Source: Parcubacteria group bacterium Greene0416_36
GTDB taxonomy: Bacteria > Patescibacteriota > Patescibacteriia > VMEV01
Direction of reading: 5' to 3'
NCBI GenBank assembly: GCA_007375725.1
Contig: VMEV01000005.1
Coordinates: 1-57,725, forward strand
Length of the DNA stretch: 57,725 bases
In this document: piece by piece, positions 9,728-29,554 of the stretch
Position numbering within the stretch: position 1 is the stretch's first letter
How the letters are laid out: each line of letters opens with the position of its first letter
Made by a program: the position numbers and the translations under genes
The notes under the pieces: model-generated
Seen by the model: the letters and a program-made list of their open reading frames with translations, nothing else
Database searches by the model: none
What the model was told of the DNA's origin: nothing

Positions 9728-10505
9728 ATTATCGATTATTATTTGCGCCTTGGATTCGAGAGATCATCTGGTTCGCTGTTTTGAATCTCTGTCCCTCCAA
9801 TACCTTCCGCGGTCGTGGGAACTGATTCTCGTGGAGAATGGCTCGTCCGACGGGACGGCGGGCTGGGTGGCCGCGGAGTATCCGCAGTTCCGTGTGATTG
9901 CTAATACTGCGAATAAAGGGGTCTCGATTGCCCGCAATCAGGCATTGGCCGAGGCGAGGGGAGAGTTTGTTTTATTCCTGGACGCGGATACTTATTTTAC
10001 GGAATCCCACACCATCAAGCATTTGATCTCGGTCTTGGATTCTGATCCCACCATTGCTCTCTTGGCCCCGAAACTTTTGTATCCCGATGGCCGGTATCAG
10101 TGTAATGTCCGCCGATTTCCAACCTTGTCGACCATGGCGGTGCGGGCCTTGGGCTTGGATTTGTGGGCGAAGAAAAGGCGTTTTTTTAGGGATTTTTTGT
10201 ATGAAGATATTATGATTGAAAATAAGGAGCTTCTGGATGTCGATTGGGCCTTGGCCGCTTGCCAATTGATTCGTTCCTCAGTTTTCAATCAAATCGGGCT
10301 TCTCGATCCGAAATATTTTTATGGTTATGAAGATATTGATTTTTGTTATCGATTGAAGCGTGGGGGAGCGCGAGTGGTTTTTGACCCCCGCGTGTCTTTG
10401 GTGCATATTTATCAGCGGCGAAGTACCCAATCATGTTTTTTTGCCTACCATCATGGTCGCAGTATTTTGCGATTTTTGGTTAAAAGATATCTATGCCTTA
10501 TTTGA
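9711..10505 (+). CDS. glycosyltransferase family 2
   Basis: LSIIICALD...NGSSDGT...LFLDAD motifs. The ATG at 9711 overlaps the upstream gene end. Confidence 0.75.
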   Translation: MSHSVKLSIIICALDSRDHLVRCFESLSLQYLPRSWELILVENGSSDGTAGWVAAEYPQFRVIANTANKGVSIARNQALAEARGEFVLFLDADTYFTESHTIKHLISVLDSDPTIALLAPKLLYPDGRYQCNVRRFPTLSTMAVRALGLDLWAKKRRFFRDFLYEDIMIENKELLDVDWALAACQLIRSSVFNQIGLLDPKYFYGYEDIDFCYRLKRGGARVVFDPRVSLVHIYQRRSTQSCFFAYHHGRSILRFLVKRYLCLI

Positions 10506-12361
10506 TCGCCTCTATTTTTTTTATTTTATTGCTCGTGCCATCGGAATGGGGGCATTTTATTTTGGGGGCGAGCGCGGCTTTGGTTTATTTATTTCTATTC
10601 TCGAAAGGGAAGATTCAAATGATCCGGAGTGATTGGATTTTATGGGTACTCTGGGGATATTTTTTGTCCGGAGTTTTTTTTCTTGTCCCATCTTTCGAAC
10701 GGGGAATAGCGGCCCTAGTGGATTTTACGTCCTGCCTGTTTTTGTTTTTTTCGGTTCGGAGCATGGATTTGTCTCTTGAAAAGTGGGCAAAGCCTCTGTT
10801 CGTCGTGTCGGGGATTAGTGCGCTCTGGGGACTCGTGGGACTTGGGCTCAGCGATCACTGGGGCTACCTCCGGACCTTTTCTTTCTGGGGCTCCCATGCC
10901 CACTGGGCGTCTTTTTTGATTTTTATTATTCCGATCGCGATGTTTTGGGTGATGAGGGGAGGGCGTCGGTGGGGGATTTTATTTCTGGCGATTTTATTCG
11001 CCAATTATTATTTCACCTTTTCCAGAAGTTCTTTCTTGGCTTTGGGTTTATGTATGGGGGTTTTGCTACTGATGAGAAAGGGCGATAAGCAACAAATCCC
11101 CCTTAATCCCCCCTTGACAGGGGGGAGATTGCTCCCTCCCCTGTCAAGGGGAGGGTTGGGGAGGGGTTGGTTGTTGGCTGTTTTTCTAATCCTCTCCCTC
11201 AGCCTTTACAAAATACACGATGCCCAAAAATCAGGTGTGCGCTTGTCTTTTTTATCACTCCAGCCCATTGTTGTCTCCATAGATAAATCAATTCCTGAAC
11301 TTGCTTCTGGGATCGACTTTTTTTTCGAACCAATACCTCCTCGAAATGCTGTGTCTTTTCGTCTTTCATACTGGAAACACGCGAGCGAAATTTTTCGGGA
11401 TCATTGGTTTTGGGGCATCGGAATCGGGGCCTTCGCAGATCAGTATCGCCTGTATTATCAGGATTTGCGCGATTTTTCGGGCGACCCGCATTCGTGGCCG
11501 CTGTCCTTGGCTTTGGCGGGCGGGGTGGCGGGGGGCGTGATTTTATTCATCTGGATTATTTCGGTGGTTCGGACAAGATTTTGGGAGGGGTGGGGCGACT
11601 CTCAGAAAATATTGGCTCTGTCTTTGGGTTTATTACTCGTTTCCAATCTCTGGGACCGAGGATTGATTTTTCTGCCGCATTTATTGATGATTTTCGTGTC
11701 TTTGGGGATGCTTTTGGGGGATGCGGGTCGTCCTGGTAGGGACACGTTCGGGCGTAGGGGCACGTTGCAACGTGCCCCTACGGGGCCGGTGGTAGGGATA
11801 TCCATAATTTTATTATTCGTTTCGTCTAGCTTTTTCCTCTCCTCTCTCTTTTCCAATCCCCGTCTTGCTTATTATTTCTATCGCCCTCGATCGGAATATG
11901 CTTATGCGGAGGCCCAGAAGCATGTGGATGGGGAAGTCCGTGCGGATTATTTTGTCTGGATGTCCCGCGCTTTATTTTGGGATGCCCCCAACTATATTTA
12001 TCGGACTCAATTAGCCGTCAATTTGTGGAATACCGGCCGTCACTCCGAGGCTCTCTCCGAAATCGAGCGCACGATTGCTTCCTCCCCCCGTGGCATTCCC
12101 AATTTGTACTTGTATTATTTTCAATTATTGAAGAATCGCGGGGAGTATGAAAAAATAGTGCGAGTCGGAGAAACTGTGATTCTGGATTATCCCAGAGATA
12201 TTCTGGTCTCCGAGGATTATTTTCTCTTCGACGGCGGCATTGAAAAACGGAAATCCGTGGCCGATATTTACGGGTGGATGGCCCGAGCGGCAGAGACTCT
12301 GGGAGACTTCGGAAAAGCGCAATTTTTCGAGGAGAGAAGCCGATTTATTTTGGGATTATGA
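10493..12361 (+). CDS. O-antigen ligase (Wzy_C)-like membrane protein with TPR-like C-terminus, carrying two in-frame repeat insertions
   Basis: Multi-TM protein with a FSRSSFLALGL-type motif. It contains NPE copy b and a GTAG palindrome in frame. Confidence 0.6.
   Translation: MPYLIASIFFILLLVPSEWGHFILGASAALVYLFLFSKGKIQMIRSDWILWVLWGYFLSGVFFLVPSFERGIAALVDFTSCLFLFFSVRSMDLSLEKWAKPLFVVSGISALWGLVGLGLSDHWGYLRTFSFWGSHAHWASFLIFIIPIAMFWVMRGGRRWGILFLAILFANYYFTFSRSSFLALGLCMGVLLLMRKGDKQQIPLNPPLTGGRLLPPLSRGGLGRGWLLAVFLILSLSLYKIHDAQKSGVRLSFLSLQPIVVSIDKSIPELASGIDFFFEPIPPRNAVSFRLSYWKHASEIFRDHWFWGIGIGAFADQYRLYYQDLRDFSGDPHSWPLSLALAGGVAGGVILFIWIISVVRTRFWEGWGDSQKILALSLGLLLVSNLWDRGLIFLPHLLMIFVSLGMLLGDAGRPGRDTFGRRGTLQRAPTGPVVGISIILLFVSSSFFLSSLFSNPRLAYYFYRPRSEYAYAEAQKHVDGEVRADYFVWMSRALFWDAPNYIYRTQLAVNLWNTGRHSEALSEIERTIASSPRGIPNLYLYYFQLLKNRGEYEKIVRVGETVILDYPRDILVSEDYFLFDGGIEKRKSVADIYGWMARAAETLGDFGKAQFFEERSRFILGL
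11089..11176. repeat. NPE copy b, R orientation, inside a CDS
   Basis: GCAACAAATCCCCCTTAATCCCCCCTTGACAGGGGGG...CCCTCCCCTGTCAAGGGGAGGG...GTTGGTTGTTG. It is read as QQIPLNPPLTGGRLLPPLSRGGLGRGWLL. Confidence 0.85.
11736..11781. repeat. GTAG-headed palindrome (REP-like) plus partial copy, inside a CDS
   Basis: GTAGGGACACGTTCGGGC is followed by the perfect 28-nt palindrome GTAGGGGCACGTTGCAACGTGCCCCTAC (11754-11781). Confidence 0.85.
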
Positions 12362-26676: not shown

Positions 26677-27753
26677 ATGTCCAAACTTTCTTATTTTTTT
26701 ATCGCCATTTTCATTTTTTCCCCATACTCCATTTCCGCTCATGACATTACTTTTGTTCACGACACTCCTGAAGAACCTTTTCGGTATTGGGAAGACAATT
26801 GTCCGACACTTGAATCGGGCTGGGTGGCCGGGCAGAAAAACGTTCTGCCGCCCCAGCGGCTTGTTTGTGATTACAGCCGTAGTGAGTCTGGATCCACGGC
26901 CGTTAGAAAGGTGCTCATCAAATATGAGAAAAAAGATTCTTTGCAATTGGACATTCGTACGTTCGACCGCGCGTCGTCTATGGAGGATGAGTGGGGCATG
27001 ATCAAGTCTGACTTCCGAGGCGGGGGGACGTATATCAAGGATCAAGATAGTCATAATTTTTTAGTCCGCTCTGCATTTTGGGACGAAGAGACTTCGACCA
27101 TGAAAAAAACTCTTGTTATGGTTCGCCGAACCGGTCAGTCCATAGTGCTCTCGACCGAGACGCAGGAATTTTATCCGTCCCGTTTTTATCAGCTGGACAG
27201 TTCGGTAACGAGTGACCGGATGAACGCGATTGTGGAAGCTTGGAAACAAAATTTTCCTTATCCTCCCCAAGAAAAATCGGCGGCAATTGTGGAAATCATG
27301 ACGGCGATTGCCGCGGAGAAAGAACTGGAATTGTCCCGTCGGACCGAACTCGAGGCCAATTATGCCGCGTGGAGAGAAGAATCGGTTGCTCGGCAAGAAT
27401 TATGGGACAGCCAAGCGGGCGTCATCGGATATGTGGGGTGTCTCCTCTGGAATGGCCTGCGTTTGGATTTGGATACATTGCGCAAATTCAATATCGAAAA
27501 TCCTAGGGTGGTGTGCGGCTGGGAATTGTATTCCAAAAAAGCTAAGGCCTCGGCCCCGGATTTTGACACGCACAATCGCATGTCTTTTATCGAGAATGAT
27601 TCGCAGTTGATTTCATCTTGCTTGACCAATCGAGTGGCGGTCTTTTATCGCACCCATTTTTCCGCTTGGCTCGAACGGAATCCCTCATTGGAACTCGACC
27701 TCGTCGAGATTTGCAAAAACGGGTGTGATGAGGGAGAATGCCGAATTAAATAG
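26677..27753 (+). CDS. secreted hypothetical protein
   Basis: Signal-peptide-like N-terminus (FFIAIFIFSPYSISAHD). No family recognised. It is bracketed by NPE copies f and g. Confidence 0.5.
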   Translation: MSKLSYFFIAIFIFSPYSISAHDITFVHDTPEEPFRYWEDNCPTLESGWVAGQKNVLPPQRLVCDYSRSESGSTAVRKVLIKYEKKDSLQLDIRTFDRASSMEDEWGMIKSDFRGGGTYIKDQDSHNFLVRSAFWDEETSTMKKTLVMVRRTGQSIVLSTETQEFYPSRFYQLDSSVTSDRMNAIVEAWKQNFPYPPQEKSAAIVEIMTAIAAEKELELSRRTELEANYAAWREESVARQELWDSQAGVIGYVGCLLWNGLRLDLDTLRKFNIENPRVVCGWELYSKKAKASAPDFDTHNRMSFIENDSQLISSCLTNRVAVFYRTHFSAWLERNPSLELDLVEICKNGCDEGECRIK

Positions 27754-27757
27754 GAAT

Positions 27758-27844
27758 AACAACAAATCCCTCCCCAACCCTCCTTTTGACAAGGGAGGGC
27801 GCTGTTTCCCCCTTGTTAAAGGGGGATTAAGGGGGATTTGTTGC
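27758..27844. repeat. NPE copy g, F orientation
   Basis: Full element starting 4 nt after the preceding stop codon. Confidence 0.9.
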
Positions 27845-27852
27845 TAAAACAT

Positions 27853-29400
27853 ATGTCTCTAATTATCCGCGAAAATATCCCCCTTGCTCCCCTGACGACT
27901 TTCCGAGTCGGCGGGCCGGCGCGTTATTTTGCGGAGGTGGGAAGCAGAGAGGATTTGAAAGAAGCTTCGGCATGGGCAATCGAAAAACAATGCCCGGTTT
28001 TTATTTTTGGGGGGGGGAGCAATGTGCTGGTCAGTGACGAGGGATTTCTTGGCTTAGTGATTCGTCCGAATTTTTTGGGGAAGGAAATTGTCAGAGAGGA
28101 CGGCGAATCCGTGCGGATTCGTTTGGGCTCCGGAGAAGTCTGGGACGAGATGGTCGCGTGGACAGTGGAGAATAATTGGTGGGGAATTGAAAACCTCTCT
28201 CATATTCCCGGACGTGTTGGGGGCCTCGCGGTCCAGAATGTGGGGGCGTATGGGCAAGAGGCTTCTCAGGTGGTCGATTCCGTCGAAGCCTGGGATATTC
28301 AGGATCAAAAAGTAAGAATATTTCAAAAAGAAGAATGCCTATTTCGTTATCGGCAGAGTATTTTTAATGTCGAAGAGAAGGGAACATATGTGATTATTTC
28401 GATTGTTTTAAAATTGAGCAAAATTGCCAGTCCTAAGCTCGATTATCCGGATCTTAAAAAATGCCTGGAGTCCAATGTGAGTCCTTCGATTGGGGATATT
28501 CGCCGCTGTATTATTTCCATTCGCGACGCCAAATTTCCGTTTCCCCGAGAGGCGCAAAACGGTAATGCTGGGTCTTTTTTCAAGAATTTGGTTCTCACCC
28601 AAGATCTATATTCGATTCTTGAATCTTCTGTCGCGAAAAATATTCCGTTAGCATTACCCAAACTTCAAGAAATCAAAAAAAAATTTCCCGACCAAACCGG
28701 AATCAAAATCCCGACCGCCTTCCTCATCGATATTTGCGGCCTCAAGGGCGCATCAGTCGGCGGAGCGAAAATCAACGAAAAACAGCCTCTCGTGATTCTC
28801 AATTATACCGGTAAAGCCATGGCGAAGGATATTTTGGCGCTGGCAGATCAGGTGATAGCCACGTTGCATGAGAAGACGGGGATGAGAGTGGAGAGGGAGG
28901 TGGAGTGGGTGGGGGCAACAAGCAACCGGGCAACCAATCCCCCTCGGTCCCCCTTTGACAAGGGGGAAGAGGATGTTGTTACCCCCTCCCTTGTCAAAGG
29001 GAGGATTGGGGTGGGATTTGTTGCTAGAGGTTTGAATCTCCCCTATAATCAAAAACTAAAAATCTTGGCAAGAGAGAACCGAAAAAATTCGACACCCTCT
29101 GAATCAAAAATGTGGAATGATGTATTGCGTCGCCGTCAATGTAAGGGGCATACGTTTTTGAGACAAAAACCCATGGGTCGCTTCATTTTAGATTTTTATT
29201 GTTCAGAATTATTGTTGGGAATTGAAATCGATGGGAATTATCATACTGATCAGGAAATAAAAGAAAATGACGAAGAAAGATCCGAGTTATTAAAAGAATT
29301 TGGGATTCAGGTAATTCGATATACGAATGAAGAGGTGTTGGAAAATATTGAAGGGGTGAGGGAGGATTTGGGCAAGAGGGTGGGGGAGAGGGAACAATAA
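27853..29400 (+). CDS. murB: UDP-N-acetylenolpyruvoylglucosamine reductase (MurB) fused in frame, through a repeat copy, to a DUF559 endonuclease-like domain
   Basis: The MurB part has LAPLTTFRVGGPARYF and FIFGGGSNVLV. The MurB part ends near 28914, NPE copy h is read through, and the DUF559-like part follows. Confidence 0.75.
   Translation: MSLIIRENIPLAPLTTFRVGGPARYFAEVGSREDLKEASAWAIEKQCPVFIFGGGSNVLVSDEGFLGLVIRPNFLGKEIVREDGESVRIRLGSGEVWDEMVAWTVENNWWGIENLSHIPGRVGGLAVQNVGAYGQEASQVVDSVEAWDIQDQKVRIFQKEECLFRYRQSIFNVEEKGTYVIISIVLKLSKIASPKLDYPDLKKCLESNVSPSIGDIRRCIISIRDAKFPFPREAQNGNAGSFFKNLVLTQDLYSILESSVAKNIPLALPKLQEIKKKFPDQTGIKIPTAFLIDICGLKGASVGGAKINEKQPLVILNYTGKAMAKDILALADQVIATLHEKTGMRVEREVEWVGATSNRATNPPRSPFDKGEEDVVTPSLVKGRIGVGFVARGLNLPYNQKLKILARENRKNSTPSESKMWNDVLRRRQCKGHTFLRQKPMGRFILDFYCSELLLGIEIDGNYHTDQEIKENDEERSELLKEFGIQVIRYTNEEVLENIEGVREDLGKRVGEREQ
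28915..29024. repeat. NPE copy h, R orientation, inside a CDS
   Basis: Read as ATSNRATNPPRSPFDKGEEDVVTPSLVKGRIGVGFVA with no stop in this frame. Confidence 0.85.
29032..29400 (+). other. DUF559 (Vsr-like endonuclease) domain segment of the murB ORF
   Basis: LPYNQKLKILARENRKNSTPSESKMWNDVLRRRQCKGHTFLRQKPMGRFILDFYC...IEIDG...IRYTNEEV matches the stand-alone DUF559 layout. A TTG at 29032 could be an independent start. Confidence 0.6.
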
Positions 29401-29490
29401 AACAACAAATCCCCCTCAATCCCCCTTTGACAAGGGGGAGGAAGCTGCGCCCTCCCTTGTCAAAGGGAGGGTTGAGGTGGGATTTGTTGT
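29401..29490. repeat. NPE copy i, R orientation
   Basis: Starts directly after the stop codon at 29398-29400. Confidence 0.9.
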
Positions 29491-29516
29491 TTTGCTGCTC
29501 TTCAGTTCTTCCCCTC

Positions 29517-29554
29517 AAAAAAAATCAAACAACACCTTGGTTAGGGGTGTTGTT
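29517..29554 (-). terminator. rho-independent terminator of the 181-aa orphan gene
   Basis: Stem AACAACACC / GGTGTTGTT is followed by a T8 run on the minus strand. Confidence 0.65.

Follow-up and report, generated by a model that had tools for sequence, protein, structure and literature searches.

Rickettsia palindromic elements (RPEs), as covered in a review of miniature inverted-repeat transposable elements, are inserted in frame in many genes (PMC10969869). The BoxC/PIT/TMECO repeats are described as intrastrand-triplex motifs, with a TMECO consensus of CCCTCNCCC-N3-6-GGGNGAGGG-N3-GGGNGAGGG and 23 copies in E. coli K-12, all of them intergenic (PMC4666352). DUF559 is a domain within the Vsr/DUF559/DUF2726 clade of PD-(D/E)xK nucleases (PMC3424549). 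In-frame fusions by palindromic repeats are an already known kind of event. Here, we describe a fusion that is unique and new as a case, located in a stretch of 57,725 nucleotides (contig VMEV01000005.1, positions 1 to 57,725; hereafter, the window) from Parcubacteria group bacterium Greene0416_36, which we take to be an ultra-small groundwater bacterium of the Candidate Phyla Radiation (CPR)/Patescibacteria. In this CPR bacterium, murB, the gene for UDP-N-acetylmuramate dehydrogenase, continues in frame through one copy of a dispersed palindromic repeat (copy h) into a DUF559 domain, and the repeat connects two entire genes, of which one is essential. The explanation we favour, with a probability of about 0.62, is a real and recent read-through translational fusion made by this repeat.

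The fused reading frame and its parts

The features of the locus, from 5′ to 3′, are as follows.

27757–27846, both strands: repeat copy directly 5′ of the murB start codon (nhmmer match, core motifs)
27853–28923, plus strand: murB proper (UDP-N-acetylmuramate dehydrogenase), aa 1–357 (NCBIfam, Pfam, alignment A1, AlphaFold)
28915–28929, plus strand: 15-nt junction GCAACAAGCAACCGG, encoding the peptide ATSNR (read from the sequence)
28930–29026, plus strand: repeat copy h, 97 nt, translated as TNPPRSPFDKGEEDVVTPSLVKGRIGVGFVA (nhmmer, 82.5 bits, model positions 3–93)
29032–29400, plus strand: DUF559 module (Vsr-like PD-(D/E)xK nuclease), from an in-frame TTG to TAA (Pfam, HMM, PDB match)
29400–29493, no strand given: repeat copy after the DUF559 stop, forming the 3′ bracket; its first base is also the last base of the TAA (nhmmer, 100.1 bits)
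29528–29554, plus strand: terminator-like hairpin with a T-rich tail (terminator scan; the first such site past murB)

On the plus strand, the frame is free of stops from either TTG 27838 (520 aa) or ATG 27853 (515 aa) to the TAA at 29398–29400, which confirms the 515-aa open reading frame (ORF) without internal stop that an earlier note on this DNA had placed at 27853–29400. ATG 27853 is the true start of murB, because the N-terminus of the homologues, M..I.EN.PLAPYTTF, agrees with MSLIIRENIPLAPLTTF. For the 515-aa product, the first two Pfam matches are FAD_binding_4 at aa 25–151 and MurB_C at aa 216–353, and the MurB equivalog PRK00046 (NCBIfam) matches aa 5–357 with 297.7 bits against a cut-off of 277; judged by these domains and this score, aa 1–357 represent a complete MurB. 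The invariant columns of 10 MurB homologues (alignment A1) are also present in the window's MurB. When the genome assembly (1.03 Mb in 25 contigs, a draft from an uncultured organism) was searched with tblastn, this murB was the single full-length copy, accompanied by a 31-aa fragment match at C11:27824–27916 (E = 0.004). An AlphaFold model built on alignment A1, which has no DUF559 coverage, making the model informative for MurB and the linker only, gave a predicted local distance difference test score (pLDDT) mostly above 80 for aa 1–350 (10-residue block means of 69–97) and below 30 across most of aa 356–402.

The conserved C-terminal motif ...EREVEWVG finishes with G354 at position 28914, in agreement with the earlier note on the end of MurB homology, and this is where the homologues also end: in ten of them (47–53% identity), as well as in the two nearest genomic relatives, the protein closes with ...EPELVGF plus 0–22 residues. 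In the window, no stop follows and 161 further residues are encoded after EWVG in the same frame. As the homologues end at the edge of the repeat and there is no stop there, the native murB tail and stop codon are missing. Their expected place is occupied by the junction GCAACAAGCAACCGG, which, by its letters, looks like a stuttered form of the GCAAC at which the repeat terminates. The 110 nt that the earlier note had ascribed to the repeat correspond to 28915–29026, i.e. this 15-nt junction plus the copy delimited by nhmmer, in a frame that is usually open.

Across 28915–28940, the murB/repeat junction is made of three tandem GCAAC-initiated units, namely GCAACAA, GCAACCGG and GCAACCAAT, and the extra 15 nt preserve the frame; these units may have arisen by replication slippage at the repeat terminus, or they may be the remnant of an older copy edge. 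Copy h itself is an inverted pair of units, each with the order pyrimidine block, loop, purine block, purine block. The RNA fold of 28900–29060 has a free energy of −81 kcal/mol (z = −5.9). Pairing also extends outside the repeat, where the G-rich codons at the end of murB, GGAGUGGGUGGGGG (28901–28915), base-pair with those that open DUF559, ...CUCCCCUA (~29036–29051), to give a longer stem, a lengthening that may be coincidental. The tryptic peptides of the read-through stretch are EVEWVGATSNR, GEEDVVTPSLVK, IGVGFVAR and GLNLPYNQK. In the −1 frame, a TGA lies within the repeat; inspection of the sequence revealed no canonical slippery heptamer at which a frameshift might end MurB. An alternative genetic code as a means of ending MurB was likewise rejected, since the frame is without any stop and a change of code is neither needed nor helpful.

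Beyond copy h, Pfam assigns DUF559 (PF04480) to aa 401–506 (E = 1.2e−25; 90 bits, cut-off 20.6; profile positions 2–104 of 109), and a hidden Markov model (HMM) search across the genome returned one DUF559 match only, at 29053–29373 (94 bits). The 'endonuclease-like protein' of Neisseria gonorrhoeae in PDB entry 3HRL (104 aa) matches the same part of the product with E = 7.6e−14. When the window's protein was aligned with eight stand-alone homologues, all 21 invariant columns of this nine-sequence DUF559 alignment were kept in it, including ILDFYC (DFYC), IEIDG (E-x-D-G) and an H. By family profile and conserved residues, the module is a complete member of DUF559 with a predicted nuclease role, in agreement with the earlier proposal of a complete module at residues ~395–515. 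Stand-alone DUF559 proteins (3HRL; NCBIfam PRK09767) have the same full-length domain and the same invariant residues; in contrast to them, the domain here makes up the C-terminal end of a 515-aa ORF whose first part is MurB. The notion that DUF559 is a multi-copy mobile gene in this organism was rejected, as both tblastn and the HMM search found a single copy. A promoter/terminator scan found no terminator-like site between murB and DUF559; since the first such site is only reached at 29528–29554, the two are probably co-transcribed.

A repeat family with several translated copies

Iterated nhmmer searches over the genome recovered 139 repeat loci, 114 of them at least 80 nt long, with the 94-nt consensus AAGCAACAAATCCCTCTCAATCCCCCTTTGACAAGGGGGAGGTAGCTGCTCCCTCCCTTGTCAAAGGGAGGGTTGGGGAGGGATTTGTTGCTTT. 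The core of the repeat, CCTTTGACAAGGG, occurs 26 times in the window, where 0.07 occurrences are expected, and 196 times in the genome. In each half of the repeat, a pyrimidine block is separated by an 8-nt loop from a first purine block, and this in turn by a 3-nt loop from a second one. A mean of 1.9 of the 6 frames per copy are fully open, and one frame per strand (NPP.SPFDKGE...PSLVKGR.G.GFV) is open in nearly all copies. From the figure of 1.9 in 6, it follows that a repeat landing on a stop codon would be read through about 1 time in 3, with the next gene in phase 1 time in 3.

The fusion of murB with DUF559 belongs to a genome-wide pattern of translated repeat copies. The essential gene ileS contains an in-frame copy (C12:89830–89925) that shares its frame with the murB copy and is the nearest relative of copy h, at 96.6% identity (3 mismatches in 89 nt), with all other copies at ≤92.8%. 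The two have common subfamily variants in both arms and all three mismatches between them are non-synonymous, a possible sign of a 'coding-compatible' subfamily or of copying between translated copies. The two copies that bracket DUF559 had been considered as nearest relatives of one another, in the manner of a duplicated target or a long terminal repeat, an idea rejected on their identity of 85–87%, as against 96.6% between the ileS copy and copy h.

Further translated copies were found in three other genes. One, at 11086–11175 in the window, lies in frame within a 622-aa Wzy_C (O-antigen-ligase-like) membrane protein encoded at 10484–12361 on the plus strand, to which it adds the peptide ...KQQIPLNPPLTGGRLLPPLSRGGLGRGWLL... 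in a frame that differs from that of the murB and ileS copies. A GT1 glycosyltransferase on the minus strand carries an in-frame copy within its Glycos_transf_1 domain, which Pfam splits in two, and a second copy just upstream of its start that is open in the same frame (C11:25969–26062 and 26800–26893). In a DHFR/RibD_C protein, the copy at C7:3610–3703 encodes the last ~37 residues (...HYKIATNPPQSPFDKGEAATPSLVKGRAGEGFVVSLPPNL*); as read from the sequence, this gene would have lost its own stop by a replacement like that in murB, without an in-phase gene downstream. The family is thus dispersed, palindromic and translated in several places (ileS, Wzy_C-like, GT1, the DHFR/RibD_C tail and murB–DUF559).

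These properties invite comparison with RPEs, which are likewise dispersed, hairpin-forming repeats of a small, reduced genome, placed in frame in unrelated housekeeping genes, where they contribute a conserved peptide and do not destroy the host protein; the hosts here are ileS, the Wzy-like protein, GT1, the DHFR tail and murB. The likeness is one of analogy, with no sequence relationship claimed, and in view of the differences in length and composition we do not claim membership; the host, too, is from a different phylum (CPR). RPEs are ~150 bp long, whereas the units here are ~94 nt and made of blocks of the triplex-motif type; and while RPEs add a loop to a protein, the element here would in addition have taken the place of a stop codon and so connected two complete genes. 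With the BoxC/PIT/TMECO motifs, the repeat shares the order of the blocks, the N3 second loop and the occurrence as inverted pairs, its arrangement being CCCTCCC-N8-GGGAGGG-TTG-GGGAGGG. It differs from TMECO in its first loop (8 nt instead of 3–6 nt), in the length of its blocks (7 nt instead of 9 nt) and in its distribution, with ~139 loci, several of them translated, as opposed to exclusively intergenic copies; it is triplex-like by its sequence architecture.

DUF559 and its hairpins in related genomes

For comparison, we used 40 genomes of relatives from within the order or class (41 with the window's genome). In none of the 40 were murB and DUF559 fused or adjacent, the closest pair being ~4 kb apart (G035). 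MurB frames in these relatives measured 274–420 aa, apart from two genomes with frames of 602 and 958 aa, and DUF559 was mostly found in separate frames of 113–174 aa, with a few longer ones of up to 363 aa. The view that DUF559 is normally a stand-alone protein was borne out at most of the loci examined in the relatives, as well as by the 104 aa of 3HRL. Comparison of murB loci between relatives, which the earlier note had called for, showed unrelated neighbours and ordinary stops at the nearest MurB loci (G001 and G011, 46–48% identity). Reconstruction of the ancestral locus through synteny or an 'empty site' failed, as these nearest loci have no neighbours in common with the window's locus.

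DUF559 homology was seen inside longer frames in two CPR genomes. In the first (L024, G022:C31:8000-10721; 363 aa), the long upstream part is rich in Arg, Pro and Gly and has the look of a different gene read out of frame; in the second (L025, G036:C5:700-4100; 284 aa), a Lys-rich tail of 160 aa follows the DUF559 domain.

A collection of ~5.8 billion proteins was also searched and, the window's own protein excepted, no second fusion was present among the 120 best-scoring matches listed. The exact 515-aa protein has one member sequence in that collection, on three contigs (NCBI/ENA/nr) of slightly different lengths, the longest being 57,805 nt. Next among the matches listed were MurBs of 351–429 aa with ≤54% identity, none with DUF559. 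When metagenome and genome contigs were scanned with aa 250–515 as the guide, a single distant MurB (38% identity) was recovered and no second fusion.

At 13 DUF559 loci in 10 other CPR genomes, GC-rich homopyrimidine/homopurine hairpins stand directly upstream and/or downstream of the gene, often identical on both sides. Within ~150–200 nt of the 13 genes there are 19 such hairpins, as compared with 2 in the other 34 kb of these loci (p = 6e−15), a control that is mostly coding DNA, so that the enrichment over intergenic DNA is smaller and estimated at roughly ten-fold. Counted genome-wide as CCCTCC-N3-12-GGAGGG, hairpins number only 4 in one genome (G038), where 2 of them bracket its single DUF559; 2 of the 5 in another (G036) adjoin DUF559 genes, and 7 of the 35 in a third (G017) lie within ~1 kb of three DUF559 genes. 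Across the 41 genomes, hairpin and DUF559 counts are correlated (Spearman rho = 0.53, p = 4e−4; Mann–Whitney p = 0.002; both uncorrected for phylogeny). At the window's locus, the bracketing is not significant when taken alone, due to the high local density of repeats (five copies in 26.5–30.4 kb). Given the bracketing hairpins at other CPR DUF559 genes, copy h is probably DUF559's own 5′ bracket rather than an independent late insertion.

The arrangement recalls REP/REPIN-RAYT systems, in which a high-copy palindromic family is likewise accompanied by a single-copy, nuclease-type gene flanked by repeats. In contrast to those systems, no Y1 transposase of the RAYT type (PF01797) was matched in this genome, while control genomes did match; the flanked gene is a Vsr-like PD-(D/E)xK protein and its link to the repeats is statistical only. 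In the DUF559 literature, no link to repeats was found among the titles and abstracts listed.

Origin of the fusion and its significance

The single DUF559 gene lies directly 3′ of murB, between two repeat copies. On the explanation we favour, the left bracket would abut or overwrite the murB 3′ end such that the short C-terminal tail and the stop codon were lost. Copy h, lying in its usually stop-free frame, is also in phase with DUF559, and ribosomes starting at ATG 27853 would run on to the TAA at 29398–29400. The product would be MurB, a linker of ~45 residues and DUF559, with additional initiation of DUF559 possible at an ancestral TTG at 29032. The linker is probably disordered according to the AlphaFold model. 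Since the tails of the homologues vary (0–22 aa) and the linker is modelled with low confidence, MurB plausibly still works. The earlier note had suggested that the repeat removed or replaced the murB stop: the lack of a stop at the end of MurB stands, while the causal step is one that we infer. The fusion would then be an accident, either neutral or slightly deleterious, rather than a functional innovation.

Several points weigh against this explanation. The exact 39-nt pattern of the junction had no match in metagenome or genome contigs, and the association of hairpins with DUF559, on which the role of copy h as a bracket draws, was measured against the largely coding control mentioned above. 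The order of events is a reconstruction, because no close relative shows a murB stop at this place (best MurB match, 54%), and production of the fused protein is presumed from the open frame. A hairpin of such high stability (−81 kcal/mol) could have an effect on the mRNA. If a single base were gained or lost, for instance within GGGGG at 28911–28915, MurB would end at the TGA of the repeat.

The last point leads to the possibility of an assembly or base-calling artefact, in which a true stop, or a frameshift into the TGA of the repeat, was missed, or murB and DUF559 were misjoined via the repeat. The bases here are those of a metagenome-style assembly, the 25-contig draft of an uncultured organism; the junction falls within a repeat of ~139 loci, beside a run of five G, and no independent contig with the junction was found. 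Nevertheless, we consider an artefact unlikely. Four other copies are frame-intact inside long genes, including the essential ileS, which indicates that the assembler does not garble the repeat; both arms of copy h share the subfamily variants of the ileS copy and are coherent, not chimeric; the identical 515-aa protein is present on all three NCBI/ENA contigs of slightly different lengths; and the homology to MurB runs up to the edge of the repeat, no leftover tail or stop being present nearby.

A further rival, which we hold to be slightly less likely again, is that the ORF is open and the two proteins are nevertheless made separately, DUF559 being initiated at TTG 29032 and any fused species being minor, unstable or rapidly cleaved; MurB would then in practice just have a dispensable tail. 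This in-frame TTG (29032–29034, codon 394), which the earlier note had pointed out as a possible start, is well placed for the purpose: in the alignment, the eight stand-alone homologues (MKRLYN..., MTRLYN..., MPRLFN...) have their start Met within one residue of it (LNLPYN...), from which it follows that DUF559 was probably once a separate gene. It also lies 6 nt past the end of the repeat, a spacing common to many real gene starts in this genome, and the linker that precedes it is predicted to be unstructured. On the other hand, genes that follow a repeat at this spacing mostly start with ATG. The TTG has no well-spaced Shine–Dalgarno sequence, as the AGAGG upstream ends only 1 nt before it, and it is buried in the predicted hairpin. 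With no in-frame stop before 29398, a full-length product is to be expected unless ribosomes are stalled or rescued.

It is very unlikely that the fusion was selected, by a tether to the essential MurB that secures expression or retention of DUF559 or lends MurB a new property. In favour of selection, this DUF559 is the only one in a genome that has ~139 repeat loci and lacks a RAYT-type transposase, the link between DUF559 and such hairpins extends across genomes, and both fused domains are intact. Against it, the fusion was seen once in 41 genomes and, among the 120 protein matches listed, in the window's own protein only, the two genes are adjacent in 0 of 40 relatives, and chance read-through predicts the arrangement about 1 time in 9 once the stop is lost. 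An extension of this thought, more doubtful still, would make DUF559 the partner nuclease of BoxC/triplex-type repeats in a REPIN-RAYT-like system, its sole copy welded to murB in an addiction by fusion; if true, a selfish repeat system would be expressed together with a cell-wall gene, and its loss would harm murB.

Neither DUF559 nor the BoxC/PIT repeats have, to our knowledge, a known function, which makes the link between DUF559 and triplex-type hairpins the more interesting question, one that this locus illustrates without resolving. For annotation, the consequence is that a 515-aa 'MurB' will appear in pipeline output with a nuclease domain, which should not be taken as a functional innovation. 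Read as the accidental read-through fusion that we favour, the locus offers a clean case, in a CPR bacterium, in which a short palindromic repeat has erased a stop codon and so joined an essential enzyme to the gene next to it. Together with ileS and the three other genes, it extends the 'repeats inside proteins' of the Rickettsia type to another lineage with a reduced genome.

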